A stretch of 55,145 nt of DNA, filler included, from Sphacelaria rigidula (Eukaryota), in NCBI GenBank assembly GCA_964200075.2. It is 6 parts of 6 records of this genome, joined end to end, with 100 filler letters (N's around TTAATTAATTAA, not from the genome) between each part and the next. Parts side by side here need not be neighbours in the genome. Positions count along the whole stretch, not along the records: positions 46,040 to 55,145 come from CAXNAA020009286.1; 5 more parts are not named here. One strand, written 5' to 3'. The translations under genes were made by a program, and so were the position numbers. The notes below the pieces were generated by a model. That model was not told where the DNA came from. It saw only the letters and a list, made by a program, of their open reading frames with translations, and searched no databases. This document shows, in pieces, positions 11,111 to 55,145 of the stretch (position 1 is the first letter of the stretch; the number at the start of each line of letters is the position of its first letter).

Positions 11111-11147
<37 letters not shown>

Positions 11148-17948: not shown

Positions 17949-18317
17949 TACTACTGTGTTATCATCGAGTAAAGAATTAAGTCAAACTTCGACGATTGAC
18001 AACGGAGATGGGTGCGGGGTGCCGGGCTGAAAAAAGTCGCGCAGGCTCCATCTGCGTCAGCGCGGCACCCCCCGCGTAGAGGCCGCCAGAGGCAGAATGA
18101 AAGAGGGCAGGATTTTGACGTCACACGATTAGCGAAAAACAGCCCTCCGAAACGACATCGCCCACCATCGACGATAACACCCCCGCAGTTTATTTTAATT
18201 TCCAACAAAATGATAGAACTTACGTCAGTCTTCGTTACAGCATGTGTGTCTGTGTGTGCTGCCGTCCCATTTATTCTGGGCGCCAGTCTGCACCTTTCGG
18301 TATATGTGGGCACACCA

Positions 18318-19989: not shown

Positions 19990-20156
19990 AAAGATATGTA
20001 ACGGATTTTGGTGTAATTTATGGAATAAACGTAATGAGCACCCTAGTGTTGGAGGTTTATCTATTAGCAGTAGGAACGATGCTCCGTCTAGAAAGGGATC
20101 CGTGGTCAATGGTCGAAGGACTAAGGCAATAAACAATTGACTTCTCCCCCCCCCCT
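19990..20156 (+). mobile_element. 3' fragment of the C-tailed LINE-like element
   Basis: Encodes GEKICNGFWCNLWNKRNEHPSVGG...APSRKGSVVNGRRTKAINN* followed by a C run; homologous to ~46435-46620. Confidence 0.65.
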
Positions 20157-20399
20157 GTTATGCTCACCTCCCGCGTCCACCATGATATCCGCTCGACCTG
20201 CACTCTGTCATGCCAGGGTTGCCCATTCCAGGTACCTGTCGACCTCGTCCATGCCGCTGTCTTCGCTGAAGTGAGACCATGTATCCGAGGAGGTGCTGTC
20301 GTCCGTGTCCGACCCCAGCGCCTTGGGACCGGCGCTTTCATGTTCACCACTCTCACGTTGCCCTTCCTTCTCTCACCGTAACACTTCGGGGTATGAACC

Positions 20400-21790: not shown

Positions 21791-22422
21791 CGTATGTCTG
21801 CTAGGCTGCCGGCCGGCACCTGCAGCCGGTCGCGCATGCGCATTGGAGGCAATGTGTTACCTGGGGATCGTCTGCGGGAAGGGGGAGGGTGCAGCTCGGT
21901 ACCCGGGTCGCCCACGTGACAGCCTTTTGGTGTACGATGAGTCCTGTTAGGCGGGCTTCCATCGAAAAGTGAACATAACTTTTGGAGCAGTCTCCGATAC
22001 AAAACGATTGCCGTAACACCGCGTGGTGTTGGCGCTTGGCGGCTACCAGTTGCAGCCAATTCCATAATAATATATTTGGAAAAAAATGAGCTTCATCCCG
22101 CAAGCAATGCTTTCGCCACACTTTCAGTGACTGTGCTCGGGGATTTTTTCCGTAGCTGAATGCATCCCGATGGCGTAGATACTTCATTCCACGCCTCCCA
22201 CCAAAACCGTAAGAGTACAGCACTGAGTGCAATCCTCATGTTACCCTGATATCGGTTGGGGGGGGGGGTGAGGACCTCCCCCGATCCGGGCTCATATTCG
22301 GGGAAAACCGTTCACAAACCGTGACATACAAATCCGAGCGTCCCTCATTTGGGCCATATTTGGGTCCATAAAAGGCGTTTCACGGTTTGGGTTCCCCCGA
22401 TCTGCGTACAAACCGGTTTTTG

Positions 22423-22770
22423 TGAGACCATATTTTATGGCAACGATTCTCGATTTGTACAAATGTGAGAATTTCAGGTCGTCTACAGGCGATTTTCTCC
22501 CGTGGATTGATTTTTCGGACCCCAATTCGTTGAGCAATGTTTTTCTGATAGCTGTGAGCAAACCAGATATTTCTCCGATTTTCTGTGCGTTGACTATTGA
22601 TACATCACCTTTCTGCTCAAATCGGGACACTCCCGCATCTCCACCAATCACGGACTGGGGTCCAAAAAATCAATCAACGGGAGAAAATCGCTTGTAGACG
22701 ACCTGAAATTTTCGCACTTGTACAAATCGAGAATTGTTGCCATGAAAGATGTTTTGACTGCCATAAAAAA
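22423..22770. mobile_element. Second, partly deleted copy of the 3889-4350 foldback MITE
   Basis: Shares TTTTATGGCAACGA...GGCGATTTTCTCCCGTGGATTGATTTTTCGGACCCC and its reverse complement. Confidence 0.8.
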
Positions 22771-24276: not shown

Positions 24277-26671
24277 AAATGTAGGTCCTGTATTTCTTGC
24301 TGAGATGAATGGCGACGGTCAGAACACCGTAGATAGAGACCGATCCGACAAGGACGACACAGTTTCAATGGTGACCAGGGTCACAGGGCCCAGAGCCAGG
24401 ATAGGGAGGTTTGGCTGGGTTTCTCTCTTCTTTCACCGGGGTAGTTGGGCCCCACCTCAATCCACTGCTGCACATGCTTATAAAAGCAAGGGCACACCAA
24501 GCGAAGCCGAATGTGGTTACCCGAAGGCCGCACGTGGACAGTCTAGGTCGAAGAACCAACAACAAGCGATACGGTCGAGAAGCGGTAGTTGTCCGAAGAA
24601 ATGGGAGGGGCTGCCAACCCTCGTATATCTGATGAGCCTACTTCTTCCAGATGTTGCGCCAGAAGCGGGTCGAGAGAGGGTCCTCAACCTCAGTGTGCCA
24701 AAAGAGATACAGCTTGAAGGAGAGGCGGATGAATCCGAGTTCGTTGGTTGCCGTGAGCTTTTTAGGTAGTGGTGTAAAGTGTGTAGTGCCCGCACGTGGT
24801 GTACTAGCTCTTCGAGGAATCACACGCTTGAACCGTCGACAAGACGACGAGAAGTTCGGATTCACTCACGACTCCAAGTTTTGTGGCAGTAAAAACCGTG
24901 ACGAAGGCCGGACGCACGAATCATCCTCATTTCAGCGCGATGGTCGCAAGTGAGCTGAAGTCGAATCAGACTCGGCCTCATCGTGTGGGCTCAAAAGTCC
25001 GACTCGTCCTCCTTCATCCGAATCGGTCGCGCTAAACCCTAAGCTTGAATGAGGGCATGTCTCGACAAGAGAACACGTATCGAAATCGAAACTGATGTTA
25101 ATTTTAGATATTTTACATGATTCTACGGCGTTCAGCACCGGCAGCGAAAATGAGTCGAGAGATGGACGAGATTTAGACCGAGAACAGCCAGCAGCTAACG
25201 GACCACAGCCGATCTAAGGGGCTCAAATGCTGACCACGAGAGGTGCGCCCCCCCCCCCCTTCGCCATACAGTGCTCGATAGCCCTCATGACAGCTCGTTC
25301 TCATACTATGTATAACATGCTCGTTTCGGCTCCAATCCGTCAATGAATGGGGCCGCTCAGGCTGTTGTCACGAAACCGCACAGTACCAAAGGTACCAACA
25401 TTGCACATATCGGGGCGGAAAACATCACACATACATTTCAACACGTCGTTGATGCTCGACCAATACAGAATCAAAGCACACTTTATCAAAAGCATGTTAT
25501 ATTTTGGTCGAAGCCAGGCTATCTTGTGCATGTGTGTATGCTCTGTTGTGAGTGTCTATACCCAACGGTGTATGCCCTGAAACGTCTACACTGTTGTATA
25601 GGTCGGCTAAGATGCACACCCCACCAGCATATATTGCGCATATGTGCACTGGATAAATGCACGTGGCCGAGGAGTATACCTCTTTGGGCACTGACATAGG
25701 TAAGTGAGTACCCTAACAACGAGTATTAGCCCGGCTGTTCACCCAAACAGAACACGTAGCCTAGATTTACGCCGAACCGACGCACCTCAGAGATCCATGG
25801 GTGTGGATTTCAGGGTTAGTGTAGCTGATGCCGATTCATCAGATGGGCATCCCCATATGGTGAGGGCTTGACACCACTACGTTGGAATGAGAGTGTGACT
25901 GAAAAATTACTCCCCCTCGATGCATGCTCGATCGCATAGATACCCGAGATTTTCGTTCGATGTGGAGACCGAGTGCAAGGAAGGAACCGCGGCGAGAACT
26001 GGACTCCTGAAGACGCCACACGGAGATGTTCAGGTATCTCCGGGTTGAGACCGATTGCAGGTTCAGACCGATTGCAATGCGAAAAAACTCAGAACTTCAG
26101 TTTCGCCAGTTGCCGATATCTAACCGTTACCTTCAGCGGGCGTTTCCATTTTGTTTTCATCTCGGGTACGTCTATCATATGGATAACGACGACGACTGGA
26201 TCATGACTATTTGGGCGATCAGTTAAAGTGCGACAAGCAATCAAATCAGTCTCGGGCAGAGTTTACACGTTTCGGGAGGCTCTCTGGTCGAGGGGGCCAA
26301 AGGAAATGTGCGTATATAATGATTGGTACTATGGAGATGCGGCCAACCCTAACGCTAACCCTAACCCTAGCTCTAACCCTGACCAAGGCATACCGAGAAC
26401 CCTTGGGCAGGGGGGGTGCTTAGTATTTCCTGCGCAAAGTGTGCGTTGCCAGAGCCGCCTTTGAGCCGAGTTTGGACCAGAACACGTTCTGAACGAGCTG
26501 GATCTACTGCTCACCACTGCTCACCTGAATTTTCTCACAACTTTCTTCATTCTGAAATCAAGTAAAATCGAGTACCAACCAATATTCACGTGCATTTCTT
26601 CAGGTCTACTGCTCTGGTCGGGCCAAAGAACTTAATCGTACCGTGGACAATAGACGGCGTCTATTGCAATA

Positions 26672-28596: not shown

Positions 28597-28629
<33 letters not shown>

Positions 28630-28654
28630 ACACATACTATCGCCAGCTGAAGCC

Positions 28655-30568: not shown

Positions 30569-33052
30569 CGGGTCAACCATCCGCTTCATGGGAGTCCCAC
30601 TCGTCAAACAAACCATGCCGCTGGTTACGTTCCTGCCCCGATACGCAACTGCCTTTCTGGGGTCGCGATGGGGGAGGGGGGGCGTCACCCTGCTTGTTCG
30701 GTGCCCCTGCCGTGGTGTCGATGCCCCCCCCCCCCCGTCACAACTCTGCACCGGTCACCGAAGACGCTCAACCGCCCGCGGCGTGTCGTTTCCCGCGGCC
30801 CCCTCAGGCGCGAGGACCTCCTCCGAACGTTGTGCTGAACGAAGTGTTTTCTTCGGCCCGCTGTTCTCGCCGTCCACAAGAACTCGCGGGGCCCACCACG
30901 GCGGCATGGCCCCTGCCCTCCAATTTCAATGGGTTCGTTGCGTGATCGAGGGTTGCGGGTTTAGGGCAAAGGTTTTCGGAGAAAGAGAGAACGGTCGACC
31001 CTCTACCTTCTACCGGAAGCCAACAGCGTACGACGATCGTGTACCTTTGCACTTCAGGCCAGCGGCTGTGACGAGTCAACAGCGCGCCCACCTCAAAGGT
31101 CATGCAGGCAGCGTCGTGTTCGGTACGGCAGAACACCGCTTCGTGCTCCAAGCGCAGAAGCGCTTGGAATCCAAGCGTTTCCGAGCGCAGGGGAGCACCG
31201 CGATCGAGCGGGGGCTCTCCAGGAGGGCGAGGACTAACTTCCTCCGGGGCGCGAGGTACGACAAGTCCACGAGGCTGTTTCATCTTCGGCGGGAGAAGGA
31301 ATCGTGGGAGGTGAGTGGTATAATCTCCAGTGAGGGTCGCGAACAAGGCGTTTTAAAATGAAGTCGAGGCCGATACGAGGCGTGTAACTGTTCCTCGCCC
31401 TCTTGAAGTATTCCCGCCCCTCCCCTTCGGATATCCTGACCCCCGTGCCCCCTTCAAGAAGAGGAGCGTAGAGGTATGACTGTCTTGGGGTTGGTTCGGG
31501 GCTGCAGGAGTGGTCGACGGAAACCTAGCCCGTCTCCGAGCCTCTCAGCCACTCTGCGAGTGATCCGACACGATACCGATCTTCTCCTCGTCTCTTGATT
31601 GCTCGGCCGTGCCTTGTTTTCCGCGAGTTCTGCTCGCAGCCGTTCGGAGAACGTCTGGAGAAGGCGGGGTTCAAGCCCAACACCTTGCCATCCAGAGCAC
31701 CTGGAGGTACCTTCGACGTCAACCTGATCGGGCACCTCAGCCGAGACGCGTTCTACGAGGAAACCATCTTTGCGGGGATGGGCGAAACGGAGATCGACGG
31801 ACTTTTCAACCTCGCGGAGGCGATGATCAACACCGCCGCGCACGGAGAGGTGAGGCGGGCGGGGGGACAAACTAGCGTACCTCTGCCCTCAGTCATTACC
31901 TCCGAGCTTCTTCTTGAATTTTACCGGCAATCGGCGATCCAGTTTTGAATTGGCATCGCTTTCGTTGTTTTTGTTCTCCCGAGTCGAAGTTGTGCCGGCT
32001 CACGATGCTCGTAGCAGACGTTTCTGTACGGTGTTCGCGTATGGGGCGGAGGCACGAGCACCATCGGCGAAACAAAACAGGTACCGAGGCGATCGTACTT
32101 CCTGTCGACAGGGGCACGTGCGATTGTGCCCCCCCCCCCATGTTTTTTGCCATCGCCGTGTCTAGACTCCCAACGACCAGCGCCGGAGCTGATGTACGCT
32201 TGAGTGCTGGGCGTCTGTCCGTGCGCAGGACCTCTGGGTCTCTGCCGCCTGTGTTCGCGTCGCCTCGTTGCGCCTAGACCGAAGCAGTGCAGGCACACTC
32301 GGCTGACGTTGAGTCTCGGCACCTTTTCTCGTTTTGCGATCGGAACAAGATAAAACACACAGAAAAAAAAAGGGGGGGAGATGAACATGCAGTAGAGCGC
32401 ATTTTTTGTCGGCTCTTGTTTTCGATCGGAGCATGAAGGTGTGTGCTGAGACCCGCCCTCACGGCGGCCGAACCGAGGCGCATCATCGCCGGCGGGCAGT
32501 AAGTACGATTGACCCAGTCAGCTCGGCCGCAGATTTGCAACGGTTGAAAAGATGTGCTCGACAACGCTGACGTTCGGATCGTGGCAGACACGCGAGGGTT
32601 AGCCGGGACCGACCCCGCTTCACTACCCCACAGTCGTTTAGCCCGAAACGCATGCATTTCTCAGGCGTCTGACCGCGCACCATGTTTGCCGAATAGCCGT
32701 ACATTTCGCCAGGGGGCAGCGAAATAAGTGAGTTCAGGGCACGTGGGCCCCGAGATCGAAAATTCGAGGTTTTGAATGGGGGGGGGGGGGAAACCCAGCC
32801 GTGTGTCCCCTGTTTTTTTTGCCGAAGCATTGGCGGATGCGGTCGGCTGCCGTACGGGCTGGGGCAGCCTAGAGGCGGATTTGAAGTCGTTTGCAGGCCC
32901 ATTCTCTTTTCTACATTTAGAGTTGGACCAAGAAGTTTGGTATGGGCGATGAATGCACAGGACGTAATACACAAAATTACTGCGGTACCAAAATCTTTAT
33001 TTTTCATTTTCATGAGTTAGGGGGATTTCACTGATACCTGAAAACCGATTAT

Positions 33053-33520
33053 TGCCCTTAACTCATGAAAAAAAAAAAAAAGCATTTTGGTACCGCAGTA
33101 ATTTTTCTGTCAATGCCCTCTGCGTTGTCCGTACCAAGTTTCAGGGTCCAACTCTAAATGTACAAAAGAGACTGGGCCGATCAAAAACAGGGTCGGTATA
33201 AATTCGGGACAGTATTTCGCACGCCACTCACCGGCCCACGCCTGGTTTTCGTGTGCTGGGATTCGGTGTGAAAGCTCTCTGAGGCACAATTAGCAAAACA
33301 AAGTGGGTCAGGCTGCTTTTTTCCCATTTTTTCCACTGGTTTAGGGCGTTCTACTGTGGTGAAGATCACATCTGACGAGAGCGCCCTAACCTCTACGAAA
33401 AATAAAATAGAAAGGAGAGCCCACTTTGTTTTTCTTTATTCGGCACTCTTTTGTGATTCTCCACACCAGAATTCGTCGCCATCCGCTAAATCCATCGATC
33501 GCGAGTTTCCTAGAGATTTT
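33053..33520 (+). mobile_element. End of a DNA transposon family starting (G)CC(C)T(T)AACTCATGAAAAAA
   Basis: Colinear reverse-complement copy at ~45488-45939; an inverted ~130-bp end at ~32895-33023. Confidence 0.7.
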
Positions 33521-34610: not shown

Positions 34611-36732
34611 TATGTAATAATTATCAAGGGGTAGTATACACTCCATTTTTCTACGAAAGGGGGGGGGGTGTATTTGGTTGCACGAAAAAAGAGGCTCATA
34701 AGTGTGTTAGACATCTTCCACACTTGCGTTGCGCTTGCAAACATACACCCCGCGAAGCCCACGAAACGTTTCGAGTTTTGTCAATGTCCAAAGATCAATT
34801 TCTATCAACGAAGTCGACAGAAATATCCAAAAATAAGGATGATTCGAATCGTCGAAAAAACGCCCTCCGGCGTCTGAGGTCATCGGGACAGAACGGGCGA
34901 GGAGCGGGAGCAGCTATACGGACCCCACGAACCCCGCCAGACTTTTCGGTTCTTGCCGGCGTTGACTCATCAATTTCTTGTAACCAAGTTCACGGGAAAA
35001 AACAAACAAACGAGTGTCTAGCCATCAATTCCTTGCGACAAACTTGACAAGAAAAAAAAGGCGAAACCATTGCGACAACTTTCGAGGAAATAGCCTCCAG
35101 GAGGGGGGGGCTACGCGTCCGAAAATGTTCTCCGCGCTCCTGGATATATACAAACGAAAACCGCTCGTGAGCTCCGTGAGACCCCCTGGCTGGGCTGGAC
35201 GTTTTTTCCGAACTCTTGTCCCAGCCGCCATTCTCCTACCTTGAGGGCATGAAGGGCGGGCAGTTACTTGAGGTCGAGTAACCCGCGGCGAGTATTCACG
35301 CTCCAAGCCCGCCGTGCCGTACAGCCAAGCCCACCGCTGACGTTCGTAACCCGTGAGTGAACGACGGGAACCGCTCCCCCCGCCCCCCCCCGCGAAAAAA
35401 AAAAAAACATGTGTGTATGCCTACATCGAAGGTCACGACTGCCGGGGAAGCGCTGATGCGGAACGCCGGCTTTGAATTGGGGAATGGCGGCAACCTTCCC
35501 AGCACGACGGCACTAAAGACGGTGCTCGGCTACCGCGAAGGAAAGGTCAAGGCGGCGGAGCGCCGCGCCAGGGCAGGAGAGCGAGAAGCCAATCGCGAAA
35601 CGGGAGGAACTCACGAGTGGCCCGCGTGGGATCCCAACGCTCGGAAGGGCTCGGTGAGTTAGCGGCAAGCTCACCTGTTTTCTTTCTTCTTTTTTTTCGT
35701 TGCGAGAGGGTTTGCGTGCGAGGACGGCGGGTCGCGCGTCCGCATTTCCCCACTAGCCCGGGCTCACCGCAGCAATTTCCGGGAGCCTGAGCGACTTCTG
35801 CTACGATCCAAATAGTAGTGTCGCGAGGTGAAGATAAGTACTTTCCTTGGGGCGGGCGGCCGCCCTTTGTTGCCGTGATGTGGTAGTAGGTTTCATCAGC
35901 CCAGCCTTACCGCCCGGAAGAAGTGCAACATCTACTGGGCTAGAAATGCTACACGCAGTCGAGGAATTGGAAAGGCGGAGTAGTACTCACCCTTTTTCTC
36001 GGCTCGGTCTAGCTGCTCGCCCTCTGCGTGTCGTGATCGTGACACCGTGAACGATGAATTCCATGAAAACACTCTGGCGCGAGTCTCACGAAAGAGTTAT
36101 CGGTAATGCTCTTGACTCCGGGGGGGGGGGGACTACAGGCGAAGGCCGACTCGCGTGCCTCGGGTGCAAAAACCCTGCACAGTAGTGGGCGGTCCTAACT
36201 ACTCATTTCGTTTCCGTTTTGTGACTTCTTTGTGCTTGGCGATTTTCTTGGGCTCTTTTCGCTTGCCACCGCTCATCACATCGGGGATTTGAATATACTT
36301 GTATCCGCTCCGCATCCCCAGAAGAAAAAGTCATCTGTACTCAAAGCTGAGTGACTCACGGGCTGCCCGGTCATCGGGGGTCCTGCCACGTTTCAGCCGA
36401 GATTCATACTCTTGTGTACTTGCGGTCGATCGAACCCGCCCCGATAATATTTGTCGAGAAGTGCACAGTTTTGTTTTTTCAAACATCCTGCCTACTCAGC
36501 GCACCAGGGCCGAAAAACTGTGTTCCACGGCCGATAACACCCTCCTGACGAACGGGGTATTTACTCGTTTCGCCCGACCACACCAACCGACACTGACTTG
36601 AGCACTGTGTTTCGATGGCGATCTGTTCAGCTGTGCTAAAATCTACCGACGCTAGCAATCCCGAGCTCTATCGGAGAGTAGTACGTGAGGAAAGCCCCCG
36701 AAACACCCCTGAACAGTTAGACCGCCCGCTGC

Positions 36733-36832: not shown

Positions 36833-37287
36833 CCCGGCTGATGCGCCCACATATCCCGAAAAAGGGTAGACTGGCGCCCAGAATAAATGTGAGGACAACA
36901 CACACACGACTGAGAGTAAGGAGCGGTCACTTGACGAATCAAATAGTTTCAGATGCGCTTTCTGCAGTAGCTTGCCACTGAGGCGTTCGATATCCCTGAG
37001 TAAGATACCGACGTGCAGCTGTAAGCATACGACGATGTTACAGGCAAAGAAGAGCACACAAAATATGAAAAAGTAGTCAAGTAGTGATGAAAGTAAGTAT
37101 CAATCAACGCAAGACTCTCGATCTCACGAAAACATTCATTGATTGATTGATCGATTATCGCACATTAGCTGATTGCAACAATCCAGCCCTTGATCAGGAG
37201 CAGCAAAGAAAAAAAACAGAAAAAGGAAGAAAGAAGGAAGGGAACCGAGGAAGACAGAAACAGCCACAGAAAGGAAAGAAGAAAGGG

Positions 37288-39666: not shown

Positions 39667-40035
39667 GTCGCCACGGTGGCTCAGTTGGTTACCTGGAATC
39701 CTTTTGACGGTTGGGTCATGGTTTCGAATCTCGGTGGAAGTCGCACGATCTGGAACTTTTTCTCACACAATGCCCAACAGTGGAGAGCGACTATGTCGTG
39801 TCGTGGGTACACAAAGTTTGACTTCACGGTCGACGAGGGAAAGGGACTGCTGAACCCTCCTTGCGATTAGAAGTAAGGCGAGCACCGCAAAAGGAAGGTA
39901 GAGTAGTAAAACAAGATATAGAACAAGAAACTCCTGTGTTGGTCTTCCTCCTGTGTGACCCCGGCTGACGCGCCCACATATACCGAAAGGTGTAGACTGG
40001 CTTCCTGACTACTTGGGATGACAGCACGCACACAA
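39667..40035 (+). mobile_element. Full-length tRNA-headed SINE, family B
   Basis: A box TGGCTCAGTTGG (39677-39688), B-box-like GGTTTCGAATC (39720-39730), CA-rich tail; 5'-truncated copies at ~13683-13810(-), ~18243-18317(-), ~36833-36908(+), ~47845-48083(-), ~54885-54950(-). Confidence 0.8.
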
Positions 40036-40442
40036 TGCCTGCCCCGTATCAGACGGTTTCTGTGTGATGGCGAGTTTAGTCTTGATTTTTTCGGCGGGAA
40101 ATGTTGTACCCCTGCGCGATTTCCGCCACGACGTTGTGCTTGCCTTGTTCCGAGCGTCAAATGGATAGTTCGTATACCTCGCCTAGTCCTTGTACATGAA
40201 TGGCGATAAGCATTGCGAAGCACTGGTGCGCTCCTCCGTGAAACAACTCGTACATGATTATATTTCCACTGGTGTACCCATTTGCTGTGTTAAGTTCAGG
40301 CCAGGGATGTCATTGATATGTTCGTGAATAAAAGTTGCCACATGCAGTGAGAACAACATGTCCGCAGTCTGGTTACACGGCTTCTTATAGCCCAACACTC
40401 GCCAACGACGAGCCCCGTTCCCACCAACACCCACTTGTTCAG

Positions 40443-41415
40443 GATGAGTAATATGTGCTTCCAGAAGTGCGTGCTGAAGATGTCCGGGGAGTCGGACTTG
40501 AATGTGGGGGAAATGACATGCGTCGATCGCTGCGTGAGCAAGTATATGGAGGCCCAAGACAAGGTGTGCTGTCAGCGAAACTGGAGGCGTGTTGTGCATA
40601 GTGTGTGTGAGCGTCTCGAGGCAATCTTATACGAGCGCGACATTTGGAGCCGTGTGCTCGCCATAGTGCATATTCGCCGAGGTTGGAGGAAGGAGCAACG
40701 TATTAAAGAAGGAATCCGCTGTTTTGTGTGGGTAGAGCTCGCACTAGAGCCGCTGTAAGTCAACAACTGTCCATCAACGTAACAGCAAGCTCTCAGAAGC
40801 GCATGCTTGGACGTACGTCTGACGTCTGGCCGCTGCTTGCAGCGCAAAAGCCACGGCGTGGCGCGTCAACTCTGTTTTTGTTGACAAGCCAGCACTATGG
40901 CGTTGTCGCCCACCACCCTGTCGCGTTGTTGTGGACTGTACAGTACAGAGCCTTTGCCGTCGTTGAAGAGCTCGACATACCTCATCTTTTCACCCCGGCA
41001 GCGTGCGAACGATTGATTTTTCATATATCAGGTCAGCCATACTGATATCATTTAGCTTACTGATGGGGGAGTGGGAGGCTGAATACTTACTGTGCTTTCT
41101 CATGGGATACAGTCAATTTGTATCTTCTGTCGTATTTATAAGGCATCGTCCGTCGGCAAAACGGTTACATTGGGTATATGGGGAAAGGGAAGGGAGCAAA
41201 AATCCTCGTTACTGTGCTTCTTTTGTGTCACACGAGTGTGTTTTGGAACTTTCTTGTGCACACGACGCTTAATGCTTCTGTTCCTCTTTCTCCCACTCCG
41301 TCCACACTTATGTACGTCCCAGGTGGGGACGGTTCTCAAGAACGCAGAGCAGAGCCTAGCAGGACAACAAGCAGGCGCAGCGGGTGCCGTAGGCGCTGTT
41401 GCACCAAGAAGATAG
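40443..41415 (+). CDS. TIM10: Mitochondrial import inner membrane translocase subunit Tim10, last two exons (40443-40563, 41323-41415)
   Basis: Twin CX3C motif MSNMCFQKC...ESDLNVGEMTCVDRCVSKYMEAQDK|VGTVLKNAEQ...*; canonical AG/GT sites with a phase-0 join; first exon not found in this contig. Confidence 0.9.
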
Positions 41416-44400
41416 CTCTGTCTCTCGCTTCAAGTTTGAAAACGGTTATTTTCATTTGTATACCAAGGGGGGTCGTATAATATTTCTCGGCCACCACAGG
41501 TCATGCTTCCAGGATCATCCCAAAACAGCTCCCAGGGAGGGGGAGGGGGGGGGTGTACTCATGATCTTGCATGTCGTAGTCGTAAGACCATTGACCTCGC
41601 ATCCCTACAAAGCCGGAGTGGAGGGCGCCGGGTTTTCGCCGGACCAGGTTCGCCATCACCAAGCGCGCAGCGCCGTCATGTGTTCGGCGAATCGCATGAA
41701 GGGTGGACTGCATCATCCTGCTAAGACTGTTCGGCCCGGAGCGTACTGAGCATCTTGCGCATGGATGGCAGCCTGCAATGAGTTGCTTGATTTTCTGCTG
41801 TCGCCACTTCCAGAGACAGCCACGGGTTCCACACCGGGGGGGGATGCGGGAAGACTCGAACCATGAAAAACAAGTTTTCGCGAGATTTAGACTCTATCGT
41901 TAATTGAGGGTGCGTTTTTCAGAACGCTCTTGCTTGACCATTCTCTCAGTTCGTGTGTAGTTTTCTTTGCCTGTGACACTGTCGTGTGCTGAGAGCTATA
42001 CGTCGATATTCTACTCAGACTTCAATGACGAGCTACTGCAGAAAGCGTATCGGGCCTCGTGCAAGGCCCGGAGGGGCATTTCAGAACTGAAACTAATTTA
42101 TTTATTGACCGCTCCTCATTCTCAATCGTATCCTAGACTCTTGAACGTCATGAAAACATTCTTGAAGGTTGACATGAAAATGAAACCTAATTGCGATAGA
42201 GGAATCTCGAAACAATTTCACGCGCGATTTCAAGCCTCTGACGACAAGAGAAATATTAGGCCACCTGCTGGATGGGAGTCACTGAATCATTTTCATTTGA
42301 AAAATGAATGTAACACCCAGGTAACCTACCCTGGCGGTCAAAGGGTCATCAACCCCTCCAAGTAGGAAGCAGCCCACATGTGTCCAGGTATACCAACGCA
42401 CCGCTCTTGCCTTGACTAATCCATATTGATCCTGCAATAAATATCACAAACTCTCTGTGGTCAGAGGGTTATAGGGGACTCAGAGGTCAACTTTTTAATT
42501 TCTTGGTCACTGACATCGAATACATCAAGTCAGGATTGACTGGCCATCCGGAGTAGTATCGGAATGGTATTGATCGCGGTTTCCTGTTTCATTCCAATAC
42601 AGTTCAACGCGAACGGGGTAACAATCAAAATACGGAAGCATTCAATGGTGACATGTCCACGACATGGAGGAAACAGGGACTAATTATAAGTGAAATATGA
42701 TCATCGGTACTTCCATACCGTCGGGAAAACATGAAAAAAGAGAGACGGCAAAACAAGTGAACTATCCCTTTGAATTTTCTGCCGTATAATAAAAACTAAC
42801 TAAACGGGCAATCATCAAGAAACACGGCGGTTATGTGCAAAAGCTACTGTTGTAGTTGTAATGAGTATGCACGGAGTGAGTGCTTGTACTTGTACGGCAC
42901 GTCGACCGGAGACGGGGCGGTACAGGAGCAATCCAACAGTGGCATTTTTGAGAGGCTCACTATTCTCACATGTGTGCAGCCGGAATTCCGGGAGCCCGGG
43001 TGACGGAATTCGACGACGACGGTAGAAATGGTTCATCACAAATGGTTCATCACAAGAGGAGCCATCGCCGAGACCTGGAGAGTTACTTATACTATGTACC
43101 TGGTACAAGTCGACTCAATCACCCATGCACCCAGGTCTCGGTCAATCCTTGCCTAAATAGATTGCATTGTAAACATGAGCTGCGTACAACATGGAATCTA
43201 GTGTCTATTGCAACAGAAGGCAATATATTACATCATGTAAGCAGTGTATTTTGACAAAGTAATATTTTGTTCAGGGTTCGTCCAGGGTGTGCTAGATAAC
43301 GAAAAGGCAAATACGTCTCGCTTTGGAGATCCTTTGGGAACATCCCACGACCCTAGCAAAATACCGCTTACGCAGCTAAACGACTAAATTATCTTGATAT
43401 TTCCTGTCCTCTTCTACAGACTAAACGGGCAATCAGCCGTGGTCGACGTGCACAACAGTAAGAAACAATGACAAATATACAGTTTTAACGATGTCAAACC
43501 CTCACCTTGGGAACAGACTCTACATCGACTGCTGCGGTAGTGAGGTTGCCATCTACATATCTCCTTTAAAACCTCGCCAACAATCCATCAAAGACCCAGC
43601 TGCAAAAATCGAAAACATCACGATAACGGGGACCTGGTTTGATCAGGTGCATGGAACAACATACTGTGCACCTCTAATTACAAACTCATCCGCAACTCCG
43701 TAGAATCACCACGTGTACGCAAGACTGCTGTCCATCTGAGGTCCGTGGCAACTCACATTCTCAAAATACACATACGATACTTGATACGAGATACTCGGCA
43801 CGAATGTATACGACCTGCTCGACGCACCGTATTACGTACTTGCATACAGCCGCAGCATGCCACAAACTCTCAAAGTCTACAGTATCATTGCCGGAGATGG
43901 ATGTGGAATTCGAACACGGAAATACGAAGGCTCACTGCCCAACCTGCCCCTGTACTGTTGCTTTCCTTTCAATGATCGTCTTTTTGTGCTCGAGCTCCTC
44001 TCGTCTTCTAGTGGAACTTGAGTGATTGCCTCCCATGCCCATGTATGTTCTTGATGTGCAGCCAAAACAAGTGCTTGAACAACGAGATGCAACCTAGCAC
44101 AAGTCGGTCATACGGCCGCTTAGAGCCGAGGAAAGAAAACATTAACGATCATAAAATTGATCAAAACCGGCTTGCGGCCGTGTTTATTTACAGATGACAA
44201 AGCAAAATAATATCGAAACGTAATCATGAGCAAGCAGCAGTAGCTGGAACCTCGCAAGTTGCTCCATGCCCTGGTAGTTGAAGGCCCTCCGTTTCTTTTC
44301 ACAAAGGGTACATGCATGTAGTGTAGAGCTCCGTGTAGTAGGTAACCACCGCCTCGGATCCAAAATAGTTGATTCTGAGCCCCATCTTCTTTTCAAGATG

Positions 44401-46039: not shown

Positions 46040-46281
46040 CACACACACACACACACACACACACATTTGCAAGATAATCAGTATGCTTCGGGCGGAACAA
46101 TCTTGGCAGGATGCAGCTCACCCTTCATGCGACTCGCCGAAGATATCCCGGCGCTTTTGCTTGTGTTGATTGACTGCGTGCCTGGTCTGGCGAAAGCCGG
46201 GCGTGCTCCGTCCCGACTTGATATGACTACGGCACGCAATTCATGAGTACACTCCCCCGACCCCCCCCCCCTCCCCCATGA

Positions 46282-46620
46282 GAGCATGAACGATACAAGG
46301 AGGAACGAGACGTGCAAGAGGGGGAAATGCGGGACGTGAACGAAGGTGGCATGAAATCGCTTGATGCGCTAGACAGTGGAGAAAACGGTGGCTAAACTAG
46401 AAGGTAGATGTTGGCCACAGACGGCGAAACAGGACGGGGATAAGATATGCAAGAGGTTCTTGTGTAATGTACGGGAGAAACGTGATGAGCACCCAAATGT
46501 TGGAGGTGTCTTCATTAGGAGTAGCAACGGTGCTCCATCTCGAAAGGGATGCATGGTCAATGGTCAAACGACTAAGGCAAGCAACAAATAAGTACGCCCG
46601 CCCCACTCGCCACCCCCCCC
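46282..46620 (+). mobile_element. Longest 3' fragment of the C-tailed LINE-like element (ORF2-like C-terminus)
   Basis: Reads EHERYKEERDVQEGEMR.../EKTVAKLEGRCWPQTAKQDGDKICKRFLCNVREKR...GAPSRKGCMVNGQTTKASNK* with one frameshift, then GTACG and a C tract. Confidence 0.65.
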
Positions 46621-47029
46621 TGCGAGGTCAATGGTCTCACGATCATGGCATTCATGATCATGAGTACACTCCCCTCCCAACATTTTCACGTTGATTCCAT
46701 TCGTCTTGTACTGCGGTGCCTGAAGATTTAACGGGACGGTCTCGATAGAGGTGCAGGTGTAAAATATCCGATATGCGGCGAGATGAGGCTGTTGTGGTCG
46801 TTATATCATTGTAGGACGTTCGCGTCGAGGTCAGAGTGCTTGAAACGTTTTGGGGGGGATGACTGACTGGGGCCTCTCCCTGACAACTTGCCTCGACGAA
46901 AAACAGCGTACTCGTGGGACAGCTCTTGAGCGACCTCAATGTCACTTGTTATCAGTGTACTGATCCTGAGTCATGAGCTAGCTTGTTTGGCCCCTTGTAC
47001 CAATTTCTTGACTACAGCGCTGGACGTTA

Positions 47030-47393: not shown

Positions 47394-48100
47394 TTTTACG
47401 TATTTTTTTTGTGTTGTAGGACAGCGGGTCTGAGAGTCCTCTTCGATCAGGTATTTTGGTAGCTCATGAGCTAGCTGTCCGATGTGTAAAACAGTCTCCG
47501 AAACTTTTTTTTTTACCCCGAAAAATATTTCGGTGGGTTTTACACCAAAATGAGGGCACGTGCACGCATGGTATTTGCCATCATTAAGTTGAGGAAGAAC
47601 CGCCGGTCGCTGTGCTGTCTGTTGTCTACAGCGATGTGCTGCTATATGTAGTGCCTTCCCCCGCACTTGTATGTACTCTGTACATTGGCCTGGCTTCGCT
47701 GCTGTTCTGGGTGTGCGTTTTGGTATGCTGCTCACCCTGAATAATGAATATTACGTAATCAAGAAGAGTGCTGTGTTCAGTATAAAATATATTTTCTGTT
47801 GAAATCACGTCAATAGTCGATACTGCACGCCAAACACTTTTTGACTGTGTTGCCGTCCCATCTATTCTGGACGCCGGTCGACACCTTTCGGTACTTGTGG
47901 GCGCACCAGCCGGGGTCACACAGGAGGAAGAAAGGCCAACATGAGAGTTTTTTTCGTTTTTGTTTCTTTTAGTTTTACACCGTCCTCCTGCGGTGCCTGC
48001 CTTTTTCATTTTATCGCGAGAGTGGTTCAGGAGTCCCTCTCCCTCGTCGATCATTAAGTCGAGATTTTGTGCACCCACGACATTTACCTACTTACCACAG

Positions 48101-48806
48101 GTTTTGGCACTGTTCAACAAGGCGGTGCGAAAGCTGTGCAGCTTCCTGACGGGAGTGGCGGAGAAGGCTGCGGCGGAGGAGATGGAGAGTCAACAGTCCA
48201 AGAAAAAGCGACTTGACACGATGAAGTGAGCTAGCATACCACGGTCAGATTTTTTTTCTCCTCCACTTTTTGTTTTTTCTTTCCTTCGTCATACGTTGAA
48301 TACCACCGCTCCATTTCCCCGGGACGACGGCGTAGTCTCGTAACGAGCCTATACTGGTTATTATCCCTAGGGGTCAAGGCGTCTCCTCTCCCCCACATAC
48401 ACCGCGCATTACGTTGTCTAGCATTGAAATCAACGCGTTGAATCAACACGCCTTCAGCCCGTCGTATTGTTTTTTTTCGAATCGGAAAACGTTTTTGTTT
48501 GCGCGACTCACTATTTCGCGTTTTGGAGCGGCTTGATTCAGAAAAAAACAGACTACTCCTGGGGTATGAACCCGCGAAGTCCGGCTAAGCGAGTGCTGTG
48601 GCGTGCCGCTTTGATCGTCTCGATATATGCTGAGCGATTCTCCGAAAAATCAAGTATATGTGCCCGTTGCTTGACCCAAAGCTGTTGTTGCCTTCTCTTT
48701 CTCTCTCTTTTTTTTTCTCTTTTTGTTGATGGAGTTCTACTGCTGCAGTAGGCGCTGCCTTGTCGATGTCCCGGTGCTTCAACGTCATTTGCCTCCCGTA
48801 CCCCCC

Positions 48807-48838
<32 letters not shown>

Positions 48839-51800
48839 TTACCTCTTCCGTGGTCTCCCTTTTTTTTTTTTTGCCTGTATGTCTTTNNNNNNNNNNTGGG
48901 GTTCCCCCGCCGGCGGTGGGGGCTGCTTTGTCCTTTCCCGTTTTTTTTTCTTTTTTTGGCTCCCGGCCCCCCCCCCCCCCTTTTTTTTTTTCTTTTTTGT
49001 ACGGTGAAGATCTACCAGGATCAACGTTTCATATCTCTGCCGTGAATGACTGTGAGCCTTTTGCTCCTCGCACGTTTATAGGTGTGATAGGTCTGCTGGG
49101 ATAAATATCTAAATATCGATGTCCCAGTGCTTGAATCCTTTAGGTGCCAATCCCGCTGAGACGTACCCAAGATGGACCGCCGAACTAAATGAAAAACATT
49201 GCCTGGTTGAAAAAAATGCAACGCGTCAGCCAGGGATTGGGGAACACGGAACGAACGGATGCATGTTGTCGTCATTGCGGATGGTTCCCAAAAACGGAGA
49301 GTATCTATCTGCTCAACTAAAGCGGCGCGTAATTTTTAGATATGATGGTCAGCCGGAGATATTGTTCCGAAAATAGTTTCGCCGCCGGAGTTGTTTACGC
49401 TTTGACTGCAAGCATAAATCGCCTATTGGAACGGCATCAATTTCACTTGGAAAGTGATGGTATGATGGCCACATAACGTACCCTCGCGGTGAAAGAGTTT
49501 TAACGTTATTATTATTATTATTTTTTGCTGTTTGTTCGATGTTGTGTGAAGGTCTGCTGGGCAGATGTCGATGCTGAGCAAGAGCATGGACGAGGATCTG
49601 GAGGGAGGCGCGAAGGAAGCCATGCAAAAGTTGGAAGGTCGAAAGGTGAGTAGTATTTATTCATGTATTTTATGACAGATGTTTACACTTTATTATGAGC
49701 TACATGAATATAAGCCTGTCAAAAGGGATGCATGGCTGGAAAAACAAATCGTTTCAGTAATATTGAACTATGTTGGCAAAGAAAAACATTTGGCGATGAA
49801 CTATGAACTGTTGAAACAGTTTTTTTTTTTTTGTGCTATTTTGTCAATTCTGATTTGCCAATCATGGAAAACATGCTCGAGATGGCTTCATTCTCATGAA
49901 AAAAAATCAGGCCCGGAATGCGTCTGAAGCGGTCGTTCAGAAGTATGTCGAGTGATGCGGCGATATCGCCCCCCCTGAAACCAACCCCAAAATTCTCACG
50001 GAGAAAATGGCCACACAGCGCACGATGGCTGGCTCTAGACGGCATGAAGCACATTCTATGCACAATATCGGCAGGAGAAGATGCCAAGCAAGGGACTTCC
50101 CAACTGCTCGGTGTGCTCGGCTCCTGTCATTTCGATTACATGCACATCCTGCCTCCTCAAACCAACCACTTCCTTGGGAGGGGCTGTCGCAGCATCAGTG
50201 AGACACGCTAAAGTATTTCCAGCTGTCAAACCCCCCCGGGCCACACCAACACGGAAGCCTTGAGGTGCCGTGTGGTCATCGTCATGATAGGCAGACTGCC
50301 TTGACAAGCGGGTTGCCGAAGCTTCGAGGGTTGGATCAGCAGAGCTTTGCCAGTGTCTTGAGGAGGTCGTCAGAAGTTGCTGGTTTGCACCTCAAATTGA
50401 GTGGCCGTCTAGACGGAAGTGATCCGATAACCCCTGAAAATGTGCTTGGATGTTCATTCGTCGAATAGACATCGCGTTAACTACGAGCTGGGCGGGCCTA
50501 CATCCCGAGAAACCTTTCACCGAACATATGGCTAAGTGAACGTATCCTTGTGATCGAGAGATCGAGATGCGTGTGCTCCGACAGCTCTTGATGTGCCTTT
50601 GAGGGTTTTCATCCAAAGTAGAAGGTGGTGGGCCAAAAATATACCGGGTTAGTTACAGAGCGAAACCATGGACTCTAGACCTGTCCCCTTCATTCCCTAA
50701 GGTGCGTGTGGCTAGTCTGACCATTGCACCACCGGGGCGCGGCAACTGGTACGATCACGCGAAAACGACGATGCGCGGCGCAATGCTTGAAATTTTGGGG
50801 TGAAATTTTGACGCCAGAGAGGCAACACGTTGGTAGGCCTACCCTATTCGAGCGATCAGGCGACCCGATATTTTTCTTCTTCTTCAGTTCTCCTATCTAA
50901 ACTCTTTCGGAACTATCGAAAAGCAGTACAAAATCTCACATGGGAGCTTTTGTCACCTGAAAACATCACTTGGAGTTCGGTGCACGAATCTGTCACATTG
51001 GTGTACTTGAACTTGGAGTGGTGCGCACCGTTTTGATGGGGGCTGCATCATCAACACTTGCAGAAAGCAACCATGTCTTGCCCAAGAAAACGTCAACTGT
51101 AAATCATGACTCCTCTATCAACGATTCCAAGAGGGTTGAGGAAGCCGAAGACAGCTCAAAAACATGCAGCGCCGGGAGTTGGGGTAAAAAATAAATGAAC
51201 GGAGGGTCACGGGGATAGGGTAGACCTATGCGTTGTTTCTCCGGTGTCAAAATGTCACCCCGAAACTACGAACAAATTGCGCCGCGGATGGCCTGTGACC
51301 TGTGGCTACGGAGTCTTGGCCGGCCCTGCTGGTGAATAAGTGAACACATATTTGTTGAGCTAGCAGTACGGAGCTTAGGGGGCACTGGCGAGAGAGAGAC
51401 GGGAACAGTGGTGTTACGTGAACACAAATCTTGAAAGAACATGAGCTGTCCATCTGTGGGTGATGAAAGCGATACCACCCCCCCCCCCCCCCCCCCCCCC
51501 CCACCCCCACCGCCCCCCCACACGGCTTCCCCCCGCGTCCCATATTACACGAGAGAGGAAAAGGAATCAAATTCTGCTCGAGTCAGGCATGTCTTCTCTT
51601 GGAAGAAAAAATGTACGCGGAATACCAAGAGTTCTTTGTTTTCCTAATCGGTTGATTCGATGCTTCGCAACACCCGAAAATTGAAGGAGGAGCTGCTGGA
51701 GTCCATGGACCTAGCCCAGTACGCGGTCAAGGGAACCGAAGCAGATTGGGAAGCGGCCACGAAGAAGAAAAAGGCAAAGAGCGGTAATCTCGGAAATGTC

Positions 51801-53130
51801 TCCATCAAATCCAAGGTGCGGCGCAGCGCATTTCGCATGCTGTCCAAAAGAGTGTCATGTCTCCAACAGGTGGTACTGCTATCCGAATTCGTGTTGAGGA
51901 CGACGGATGGGGCGGGGTGTAATGCGTGAGAGGACCGCATCGTATTGTAGTCCAAAACACCTCAGGATCGACTATTTTTTCGAAACCAAACGGGCCAGTC
52001 TCTGCAGGGACCACGCCCCTGATCTGAGCCGCAGCCCCTAACGCGAACCCTCATCCTCACCCTAACCCTAACCATAGGGGTGTTGAAATTCCGAAGCGGT
52101 CCGCTGAGCACGCAGTCCTCTCACCCATTACACATGGGGCAATTACTCGATAACTCTATAACGATACACCCGCTTGGTACCGGGGAATGGGGCACGATGA
52201 AATCTGGTTTTGAAGCAACCAGATCTCGTCACCCCTCAAGTCAACTCCAGCGACAGGCATCTTTTGCTGAACTCGGAACAAGTGCGCGCTGTAGTCGGTG
52301 TTCTAAGATTGGCGAGGTTTGGCCGCGAGTGATGAAATTCGAGCGCATGGAAAGGCCGGCGAAATATGAGGGATCGGCTGAGTTCCGAGGTTACCTGAGG
52401 ATCACTCCATAACCCTACATACAATACATAAGGCAACAATCAGGAATCCTATCGCGTGTCTATGTACATGATAACCTCAACCCCACGCCTGCTGGGATTC
52501 ATGCCACTGACGGATGGTGAGACACTCATGAGACAGTCTGTAAGCCGTGGCTGTCTCTAGAAGCAGCAATAGCAGAAAACAGAGCAAATAATTGTAAGCT
52601 GTCATAGACATGCAAGATGCTCAGTACACCACAGACCGAACAATCGTGACAGGATGCAGCTCACTCCGCATGCGAATCGCCGAATATATCACGGAGCTTC
52701 GCGCTTGGTGGTAGGTTGCGAGCCTGGTCCGGCGGAAACCTGGCGTGCGCCGTCCCGGCTTTGTAGGGATGTGAGATCAGTAGTCTCATGACCACGGCAT
52801 GCAAAATTATGGGCACGCCTCTCCCTCTCCCCTTCTCCCCTTCTCCCCTTCTCCCCTTCCCCCCTTCTCCACCGTTTCTCTCCGCCTGCCCCCTTGCCCC
52901 CAATATCCCCTTGGATATCCTTGTGTCTAATTCTGACTCGATTGTCTGACGTGCAGGTGCGTACGGCTGCCGCTGATGGAGTGCTGCTGGAAGGTGCTGA
53001 TGGAAATGGGACTTCTAAAAAGAAGCATGGCGGCAAGAAGAGACGCGACTCTGCTTCCAGCAACGGTGACGTCGGTGTGGAAAGCGGAGCTGGTCCTGGC
53101 AAAAAAAAGAAAAGGATAAAAAACGTCTGA
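48101..53130 (+). CDS. NAT10: RNA cytidine acetyltransferase NAT10/Kre33, last four exons (48101-48225, 49552-49645, 51687-51815, 52957-53130)
   Basis: Spliced translation VLALFNKAVRKL...EKAAAEEM...SKSMDEDLEGGAKEAMQKL...ELLESMDLAQYAVKGTEADWEAA...VSIKSK plus a Lys-rich NLS-like tail matches the NAT10 C-terminus; splice phases 2, 0, 0 are consistent. Confidence 0.9.
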
Positions 53131-53990: not shown

Positions 53991-55145
53991 TTTGCAACCA
54001 GTTAACCCTTGAACGGGTTAGCGAAACCAGTTCACGATTCTTCAAAGAGATCCTCTACAAAGCCGGCGCACCCGAGACTGAACAACGTCAGATAGGAAGA
54101 TCCAGACAAGTCAAGAACACAGAAAAGGACGAGCCGATGTGAAAGAGGAGGGAGAGCGAAGAACTATGCTCCCCCTCGGGTTCTGGTCAAGCATCATCTT
54201 CATGGGAAAACATCAGACGGGGCGTGTCTCTCCCCCACACGGCATATAGCACTATCGGTAGAAAACAGAATCTATTCCAATTTCACAAAGTGAAGTTGGT
54301 TTCTGCTGCGGGTAAAACTTCGACTCAGAGGTTTTTTGCGTCGTGATTCTTGCGATATTTTTTCCCTAGATTTTTCCAGTCTAGAACCCTCATCGATTTC
54401 GGTTCTTGGAGGATAACTTCGTCAAATGGACACCAAACCTGCTCGAAGGGTCACCTGGACACACAGCAGTTGCCGCGTCCTACCTAGTATTATCCACAAA
54501 TCGAAGTCGTGAGTGAGAACCCCCGGCGTTTCGAGCCCATGTACAAGGATGATCTACATCGAGTATCATGCTCCACAACGTACCTGACAAGTGGGCAACA
54601 CCCCGTACAGACAGAAGCAATGCTAGCGAATCCTACGTCCTGACAGTCTGACAGTCTGGCAGCCTGCAAGGTGGTTATGGCAGTGTATTTCCAGCGATAT
54701 CAACTTACCGTACACTGGAGCAGAGGTTGCAGGTGAATATTTCGGCGATTGCCTCACCTGCAATTCGCCCAGATGTTGCCCCTGCATTATATATGGAAAA
54801 TGTCCCCAACCGTGAACGAAATATGTCTACAGACAGTACGAACACGATGTATGTGGACAGTGTACTGCGCAACGTCGAGTTTGCTGTGTGTGTTGTCGTC
54901 CATAAATCTGGACGCCGGTCTCCACCTTTCGGTATATGTGGGCGCACCACGGCGTGGCTGTGTTACCATACAGCTTCACCCAAGATATAGGCAGCCATTC
55001 CAGCGGCGGAGGCGACCATTCATTCCTTCGTGCGCCACTAAGGGCAAACACACGCTGTAAACAGTGAATCCTAGAAAATGAGGTTGATACAAAATATGGG
55101 GTTGAAGTGGCATTTCTCTTTTGTAGGGAAGACGCGAAACACTAG

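Follow-up and report, generated by a model that had tools for sequence, protein, structure and literature searches.

The DNA at 46060–46681 raises the question of which repeats are stacked there, and how each of them came to begin where a run of C ends. The initial annotation read this locus (46067–46680) as a LINE/SINE pair with a common 3′ end: a copy of a short repeat, family A, followed by a LINE fragment and by a second family A end, each starting in or next to the previous C tract. The window, by which we mean the whole stretch of DNA analysed, comprises 55,145 bases. It consists of six contigs of about 9.1 kb each with spacers (N/TTAATTAATTAA) between them, and contains two N10 assembly gaps. 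The DNA is eukaryotic and nuclear, and one of its ORFs encodes a Tim10/DDP zinc finger. The named matches of the Tim10 exon all come from brown algae (Ectocarpus sp. 8, Ascophyllum nodosum, E. fasciculatus and Pylaiella littoralis) with 73–81% identity, and its best match overall is 98% identical. Two repeat families, A and B, were defined by self-BLAST, two alignments and nhmmer profiles built from the copies. The family A profile comprises 335 positions, and family B corresponds to the LINE fragments.

Repeat pieces at 46060–46681 and in the rest of the window

The following features were found at the locus:

46040–46065, no strand: (CA)13 microsatellite opening the contig, with the stack immediately 3′ of it
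46060–46257, plus strand: 5′-truncated family A copy (profile positions 115–335; nhmmer E 3.5e-58)
46252–46278, plus strand: C-rich tail of the first family A copy (26 nt, 85% C)
46279–46597, plus strand: 5′-truncated LINE 3′ end (residues 1258–1360 of the homologous protein P0003; tblastn E 9e-30)
46598–46620, plus strand: C-rich tail following the LINE piece; its last bases are C8-TG
46621–46674, plus strand: 3′-terminal 54 nt of family A, with a short C-rich tail to about 46681 (profile positions 282–335; nhmmer E 1.5e-10; 91% identical to 9260–9317 by BLAST)

The stack therefore reads family A, tail, LINE, tail, family A end, tail. All pieces lie on the plus strand and each starts where the previous tail stops, which is the order that had been described. 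According to the alignment, an internal deletion of about 25 nt in the first family A copy takes out the GGTCAATGG box discussed below. The LINE piece is a dead copy with a frameshift near 46383 and an in-frame stop at 46393–46395; the stop codon of its ORF, at 46589–46591, lies about 6 nt upstream of the tail. Two other regions that had been noted as similar, 1–112 and 9211–9370, are indeed built in the same way, the second of them extending over 9213–9372 in our analysis. Stacks also occur outside the window, in seven of 44 related ORFs (P0002, P0025, P0026, P0030, P0031, P0033 and P0042). These ORFs read through family A and LINE pieces, which are joined by proline-rich linkers encoded by C tracts (CCC), and their truncation points differ.

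Self-BLAST and nhmmer revealed 11 family A pieces in the window, located on contigs 2, 5 and 6 of the six. Five of the six contigs carry family A or family B. The initial annotation gave about ten copies or fragments of a repeat of about 310 bp on four contigs; the full unit is longer (about 335–345 bp) and the family is present on three contigs. In addition to the two pieces of the stack, the family A pieces are:

9458–9785 (region 9449–9795), plus strand: near full length (profile positions 7–335), 14-nt C-rich tail, nhmmer E 4e-113
13208–12875 (element and tail 12870–13217), minus strand: near full length (profile positions 7–335), short tail, nhmmer E 5e-105
52480–52823 (52478–52870 with tail), plus strand: near full length (profile positions 3–335), 52-nt tail of the (TCTCCCCT)n type
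41835–41548 (tail to 41535), minus strand: profile positions 47–335, C8 at the 5′ junction, 17-nt tail
11337–11140 (tail to 11097), minus strand: profile positions 138–335, tail of about 49 nt, mostly a single C run
9213–9313, plus strand: 3′ part cut by the contig start (profile positions 235–335), followed by a tail and then by the fragment 9327–9372
9327–9372, plus strand: fragment (profile positions 235–280) beginning inside the tail of the 9213–9313 piece
11032–10973 (tail to 10952), minus strand: 3′ end and tail cut by an N10 gap (profile positions 276–335)
13332–13376 (region 13305–13399), plus strand: 3′-terminal 45 nt (profile positions 290–334), C-rich tract before it and 27-nt (CCCCCT)n tail after it

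Three of the 11 pieces (9458–9785, 13208–12875 and 52480–52823) are near full length. The 3′ end is kept by ten pieces, the sole exception being the fragment 9327–9372, while the 5′ starts found by nhmmer range from profile position 3 to 290. The three LINE pieces also reach their 3′ end and differ in their 5′ ends, in agreement with the earlier description of mostly 5′-truncated copies with a fixed 3′ end. The segment 10952–11032 is a duplicate of 11119–11199 with 95% identity, located across an N10 assembly gap.

An arrangement of this kind could in principle be an artefact of assembly or duplication, resulting from a collapsed or misjoined repeat. The contigs are short, a contig or gap edge truncates two of the pieces, and one pair of segments is 95% identical across an N10 gap. 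The pairwise identity between the copies is 73–87%, however, so that they are 13–27% apart, and their flanks, tails and truncation points differ as well. Moreover, junctions of the same types occur on independent contigs represented in the protein database. We regard an artefact as hardly credible.

The LINE behind the family B ends

Three family B pieces are present in the window, at 27–100, at 19983–20151 and at about 46279–46602. The two located outside the stack are:

27–100 (region 4–114), plus strand: 3′-terminal 74 nt of the LINE (residues 1341–1360 of P0003), C16-TG tract before it and C-rich tail after it
19983–20157 (LINE part to 20151), plus strand: LINE 3′ end and C tail (residues 1310–1359 of P0003), 5′ junction without a C tract

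All three stop at one common 3′ point, and tblastn places their 5′ starts at residues 1258, 1310 and 1341 of P0003. The initial annotation had assigned them to an ORF2-like C-terminus. A search of the protein database with the 72-aa ORF at 46373–46588 returned 44 longer proteins. Among these, P0003 (1360 aa) has a C-terminus that is 76% identical to the ORF over 97% of the query. P0003 contains an APE-type endonuclease (Exo_endo_phos at residues 170–392, Exo_endo_phos_2 at residues 279–414), which is located N-terminal to a reverse transcriptase (RVT_1 at residues 740–989, E 1e-30), and it matches the solved structures of the L1 ORF2p and R2 reverse transcriptases with E of about 1e-20. The assignment to a LINE is thereby borne out, and both enzymatic domains that an extension of the LINE was expected to recover were found in this homologue. 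P0003 and P0045 (1328 aa) are single ORFs, each with both the endonuclease (EN) and the reverse transcriptase (RT) domain. The ORFs on other contigs that are related to the LINE begin at many further truncation points.

Within the window, none of the 104 ORFs of at least 110 aa encodes an RT or endonuclease domain, and the identity of the LINE therefore leans on the homologues from other contigs. A tblastn search of the window with 163 related proteins revealed no LINE pieces beyond the three known ends; the only other matches were to family A, and these arise through the A-derived part of P0002. Judged by their homology to these proteins, the family B pieces are 5′-truncated, dead 3′ ends of one LINE family. 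A Penelope-like element of the Chlamys type was also considered on account of the tandem arrangement and the microsatellite flanks. This candidate was rejected, since the homologous full ORF has an APE-type endonuclease and not a GIY-YIG one; the Ectocarpus library discussed below gives (A)n tails for its Chlamys elements (PMC12477816).

The closest named relatives of the LINE are Ectocarpus proteins. Among the 120 relatives listed, one from Ectocarpus has 64% identity to P0003 over the RT region. At the C-terminus, a comparison of the last 70 residues gives 63% identity between the ORF of the window and Ectocarpus P0133. None of the 120 relatives listed carries a clade name. A survey of Ectocarpus transposable elements (Genome Biol 2025) lists RTEX-1_Ec32 as an element of 5.5–5.9 kb with a "single EN-RT ORF; (C)n 3'" and a "C-rich" target site duplication (TSD), and annotates RTEX-2_Ec32 with "(C)n termini/TSD" (PMC12477816). 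Among the LINE, Chlamys and unclassified rows listed from that library, (C)n 3′ tails are found only in RTE-X, while RTE elements have (CAA)n, CRE elements (CA)n and Chlamys elements (A)n; C-rich termini and insertion sites are noted as well for unknown7-N1_Ec32, a non-autonomous family among the unclassified ones (PMC12477816). The curators give RTEX-4_NV and RTEX-1_BF as the best blastp matches of the Ectocarpus RTE-X LINEs (PMC12477816). Since the closest named relatives are Ectocarpus proteins, and among the EN-RT LINEs listed for Ectocarpus only those of RTE-X have (C)n tails, the LINE most likely belongs to the RTE-X clade.

The LINE resembles the library descriptions of RTEX-1 and RTEX-2 in its single EN-RT ORF, its (C)n 3′ tail and its brown-algal host. 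C-rich termini or TSDs are annotated in Ectocarpus, and C-rich 5′ flanks are found here in six of nine truncated copies. In amino-acid sequence the LINE differs from the Ectocarpus proteins by at least 36%. Its host is another brown alga, as the Tim10 exon has 98% identity to its best match and 73–81% to the named species. An RTE-X-type LINE called recently active, RTEX-1 of Saccharina japonica, has been reconstructed from the kelp genome; it is like the LINE described here in clade and host group, the two points, and the only ones, on which the likeness is drawn (PMC4421812).

Family A and the common 3′ module

The initial annotation stated that family A and the LINE fragments end alike. The two families are indeed similar over the last 75 nt or so: BLAST alignments give 75% identity over 93 nt (E 5e-9) and 82% over 72 nt (E 1e-11), and the family A profile finds all three family B ends by nhmmer (E 1.8e-12, 4e-8 and 3e-5). 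The common 3′ module reads GTGCTCCGTCyCG..AGGGATGCGwGGTCAATGGTC..GACTAmGGCA..ATGAGTAC and is followed by the C-rich tail. As the stop codon of the LINE is separated from the C tail by no more than about 6 nt, the module common with family A overlaps the last 20 or so codons of the LINE ORF. Apart from these codons, family A shows no tblastn similarity to P0003.

The GGTCAATGG box within the module encodes V-N-G in the LINE. A motif of the [C/R]-V-V-N-G type, located 6–8 residues before the stop, is found in 27 of the 120 RT-region relatives listed, 26 of them among the 55 best matches, compared with 0.4% of control windows showing the same pattern. The same box is kept at the nucleotide level in family A, which is non-coding, and this indicates a role of the box at the level of nucleic acid. 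With a hand-adjusted alignment, RNAalifold proposes two hairpins in the module, CGUCyC/GGGAUG and UGGUC-N4-GACUA, and folds of single sequences often add a closing helix of GUGCUC with GAGUAC. By eye the hairpins look plausible as well. Wherever a predicted pair has changed, however, only one of its two sides is affected, and no compensatory changes are seen. The folding energies of the nine sequences were compared with those of shuffled versions; z-scores from −1.16 to +0.89 were obtained, so that none of the modules is more stable than its shuffles.

It is not obvious whether family A should be called a SINE. It is short, it is non-coding and its 3′ end is LINE-derived, as the initial annotation supposed; a pol III-derived head with an internal promoter was not found. 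No ORF is conserved in family A: stops occur in every frame, no frame is common to the copies, and frame-breaking indels are present relative to family B. A protein-coding nature of the family was rejected, as no frame is open across the copies and a Pfam search gave no match for the long stop-to-stop ORFs that span three of them. The lack of an obvious tRNA head, which had also been noted, holds. ARAGORN found no tRNA genes, and Rfam returned no match at gathering scores. When two full copies were searched at E up to 10, only chance-level matches to lncRNAs and snoRNAs were obtained, in the wrong parts or on the wrong strand. The family A consensus contains no A box within two mismatches and no convincing B box. 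A tRNA, 5S or 7SL head was therefore rejected on the grounds that ARAGORN, Rfam and the scan for A and B boxes all gave no convincing match in the first 255 nt or so. With a head of no traceable origin, the label SINE is unproven, and non-autonomous partner is the safe label for family A.

Family A may instead be an internally deleted LINE, in which the 5′ end of the LINE is joined to its 3′ end and the LINE promoter drives transcription. Such an origin would fit a family with neither a tRNA, 5S or 7SL head nor an A or B box. It is at odds with the tblastn comparison, in which family A resembles P0003 in the last 20 or so codons and nowhere else, within the protein-coding part of the LINE that this comparison covers. 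We consider a deleted LINE somewhat unlikely, though worth keeping in mind.

Partners of the same kind are described in the Ectocarpus library. RTEX-N1_Ec32 and RTEX-N2_Ec32 are listed as non-autonomous elements that agree with RTEX-1/2 in their 3′ end and whose 5′ head is given as unknown; the former is 604–607 bp long and "can be present in tandem", and the latter, of 188 bp, "could be SINE" (PMC12477816). Family A is like them in being a short partner that has 60–100 bp of 3′ end in common with a LINE, in its heavy 5′ truncation and in its tandem occurrence. With about 335 bp it is unlike either of them in length, the comparison being one with the library descriptions. The pair formed by family A and the LINE is another brown-algal case of the kind catalogued in Ectocarpus in 2025. 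The possibility raised at the outset, that the pair might already be catalogued, is thus realised in part, by RTEX-1/2 and RTEX-N1/N2 (PMC12477816); this lowers the novelty of the pair and leaves the correctness of the reading unaffected.

Outside the algae, a comparison can be made with stringent LINE/SINE pairs such as UnaL2/UnaSINE1 of the eel, whose terminal repeats are not poly-A and probably take part in template slippage at the start of reverse transcription (PMC3747384). As in that pair, the partner borrows the 3′ end of the LINE and the terminal repeats are not poly-A (PMC3747384). Unlike the module of UnaL2/UnaSINE1, which is described as lying in the 3′ UTR, the one found here overlaps the last 20 or so codons of the ORF. 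Further differences from the eel pair, as far as it is described in that source, are the C homopolymer or C-rich tail, the partner without a tRNA head, and a stem-loop without support from covariation or stability. The pair formed by family A and the LINE overturns no current idea on LINE/SINE partnership.

C tracts, insertion and stacking

The tails had been described as poly-C or C-rich and not poly-A. This applies to all 13 pieces with a 3′ end, which carry tails of 9–52 nt with 65–100% C. The tail types include a (TCTCCCCT)n array and a run of about 45 C. With a C tract counted as at least 10 C in 12 nt, 44 tracts are present in the window of about 55 kb, divided equally between the two strands (22 and 22). 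A family A or B 3′ end precedes about 12 of these tracts, so that the pair accounts for part of the C tracts of the window. The other 32 or so have no recognisable end before them, which means that C tracts are common here for reasons beyond these two families.

Nine truncated copies have a readable 5′ junction. In six of them (41834, 13332, 46621, 9327, 27 and 46279) a C tract, taken here as 9 or more C among the 12 nt immediately preceding the copy, lies directly at the junction. Such C-rich positions make up 0.56% of the window, and the binomial probability of six in nine is 2.6e-12. In the remaining three, a C tract lies 13 nt further upstream and is followed by (AC)5, the (CA)13 microsatellite precedes the family A copy at 46068, and nothing of the kind is found at the LINE piece at 19983. 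The tract at the junction is always C on the sense strand of the element and never G. The stacking into C tracts described by the initial annotation is real, and it recurs in the seven of 44 related ORFs from other contigs. The observations of that annotation are confirmed and its interpretation is supported.

It is very likely that family B is the 5′-truncated 3′ end of a non-LTR retrotransposon which is autonomous, encodes APE and RT in one ORF and most likely belongs to the RTE-X clade. Family A would be its non-autonomous partner, a retroposon of about 335 bp that is non-coding and carries the same 3′ module of about 75 nt and a C-rich tail. For the stacking of the two we propose the following course of events. 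The LINE protein would recognise the 3′ module both in the LINE RNA and in that of family A, which would make the relationship between LINE and partner a "stringent" one. Target-primed reverse transcription would begin where the G-rich bottom strand, corresponding to a C tract on the sense strand, pairs with the C-rich tail of the RNA. Each insertion would leave a new C tract, later copies would be placed in or beside older tails, and same-orientation stacks such as 46060–46681 would result. The sequences show the LINE identity, the common 3′ module, the fixed 3′ end with variable 5′ ends, the C-rich tails and the C tracts at the junctions. We infer the priming on, or targeting of, C tracts, together with the recognition of the module by the RT, the base-pairing of tail and target, and insertion in sequence as opposed to stacking in a single event.

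Template jumping by non-LTR reverse transcriptases is established. The main rival explanation for the stacks is that each of them goes back to one integration event, in which the RT jumped from the broken 5′ end of one RNA to the C tail of a second family A or LINE RNA and produced a chimeric cDNA. Every junction consists of a complete 3′ end with its tail followed by a truncated 5′ end, in one orientation, as such jumps would produce. A start of synthesis at the 3′ side of the stacks, with a later switch of template, would also account for the very short terminal pieces (45–54 nt) located there. The isolated truncated copies at 41835 and 13332, however, have a C tract at their 5′ end and no recognisable element upstream of it, although they are not part of stacks. 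In the Ectocarpus library, too, C-rich TSDs are annotated for single copies (PMC12477816). Both observations are compatible with jumping in the stacks themselves. Formation of the stacks in single events is, in our judgement, unlikely, and sequential insertion into C tracts is preferred, although the window fits either course.

The C tracts at the 5′ junctions might also not be targets at all. They may be the leftover tails of older, deleted elements or reflect a genome-wide excess of C tracts, in which case the adjacency would result from the clustering of repeats. The number of tracts (44, of which about 32 do not adjoin a family A or B end) fits such an explanation, and none of the three near-full-length family A copies has a C tract at its 5′ junction, a result that also speaks against a tract being strictly required. 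The flanks of the copies give no clear sign of TSDs: flank-to-flank scores of cognate pairs have a mean of 8.25, compared with 7.07 (sd 3.15) in 56 non-cognate pairs. The copies are old, with 73–87% pairwise identity. TSD candidates recognised by eye (for example TAGGCAA at 9449 and ACTCCGCA at 13217) were rejected, being no better than mismatched controls. A chance association would nevertheless have to place six of nine junctions exactly at a tract when 0.56% of the window positions qualify, always on the sense strand, and with the same junction type in unrelated contigs. We consider it quite improbable, and retain priming on C tracts as the proposed explanation of the junctions.

Microsatellite-targeting non-LTR elements of the R1 and Tx1 groups of animals were reportedly described by Kojima and Fujiwara in 2004. 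The elements studied here are like them in lying inside a simple repeat that flanks both sides and in being able to form arrays. They are unlike them in that the target-like sequence is their own tail, and in that near-full-length copies lack it on the 5′ side.

A more far-reaching reading is possible rather than probable, and we put it forward tentatively on the basis of the sequence comparisons. The box recognised by the RT may be written into the last 20 or so codons of the ORF and not into the UTR, as a dual protein and RNA signal across a wide LINE lineage. The element itself may be a homopolymer-specific LINE whose C tail pairs with a run of G where the target is nicked. Each insertion would in this way provide a target for later ones, and arrays would be built up. 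If the coding-embedded box is real, the dual signal would be conserved across that wide lineage. Our literature search found no mechanistic study of C-tailed LINEs, the only description found being the notes of the curators of one transposable element library. Poly-C-tailed LINEs are unusual, and the making of the tail, the targeting of C tracts and the coding-embedded box as a signal for the RT are all testable. For the annotation of the source genome, the analysis provides names and boundaries for a repeat pair that makes up several percent of the window.

Terminal motif of the C-rich tails

Many of the tails that follow copies of family A (a non-coding repeat of about 335 bp) and family B (5′-truncated 3′ ends of an RTE-X-like LINE) terminate in C(n)TG, as at the following positions.

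Tails ending in C(n)TG
96-112
9782-9795
20147-20158
41535-41551, minus strand
46612-46620

In two of the stacks, where pieces of these families lie in series, the next truncated element (starting at 27 and at 46621) is found directly 3′ of C(n)TG. The motif could represent the true 3′ terminus of the elements, or it could be a part of a C-rich TSD which ends in TG.

C-rich and (CA)n tracts elsewhere in the window

With a threshold of at least 10 C per 12 nt, 44 C-rich tracts were counted in the approximately 55 kb of the window, and about 32 of these 44 have no recognisable family A or B end adjoining them.

Examples from the window-wide count of C-rich tracts
18433-18469, minus strand
25245-25262, plus strand
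30669-30739
36118-36133, minus strand
51474-51521, plus strand

Several of the tracts not adjoining family A or B ends are preceded by ...GTA or ...TAC, and they may therefore be tails belonging to further families of C-tailed retroposons, or else decayed copies. Some C runs are directly continued by long T or A runs (C14 followed by T~27, C15 followed by T~10).

C runs passing into T or A runs
7885-7901, minus strand
35374-35408
48799-48840 and 48962-48995, flanking an N10 gap at 48887-48896

These homopolymers may have caused the assembly break at the N10 gap.

Two truncated family A copies carry a (CA)n run directly at their 5′ side, and a further array is present in the window.

(CA)n runs
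11338-11348, minus strand, (AC)5, directly 5′ of a truncated family A copy
28599-28634, (AC)18, further array
46040-46065, (CA)13, directly 5′ of a truncated family A copy

In part of the Ectocarpus TE library (PMC12477816), (CA)n is the end of CRE-type LINEs and of possible partners. The (CA)n runs in the window may therefore be tails of another family.

Other repeats and coding sequences

Palindromic (foldback) repeats occur at five loci.

Foldback repeats
1925-2216
3891-4348
12103-12496
22422-22751
32896-33178

At 80-86% identity, the loci 3891-4348 and 22422-22751 form one family, and this points to a MITE-like element.

Further repeats
4500-5747, 623-bp unit, tandemly duplicated, 95% identity
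22920-23355, tandem array, period about 64 bp, 6.7 copies, 69% matches
13687-13808, 18250-18317, 36833-36907, 39799-40034, 47846-48082 and 54884-54949, interspersed family of about 120-240 bp, 75-86% identity, two copies at contig ends
33059-33746 and 45343-45935 (minus strand), repeat of about 600-690 bp common to two contigs, 77-87% identity, extending to the end of contig 5

The ORF at 1245-1733 (plus strand) weakly matches the dimerisation domain of the hAT family (E 0.004; score of 17.3 bits, below the curated cut-off of 21.4) and could be what is left of a hAT transposase. At 40438-40620 (plus strand), about 900 bp away from the family A copy at 41535-41835, lies an exon for a Tim10/DDP zinc-finger protein (Pfam E 2e-11), which is a small chaperone of mitochondrial import.
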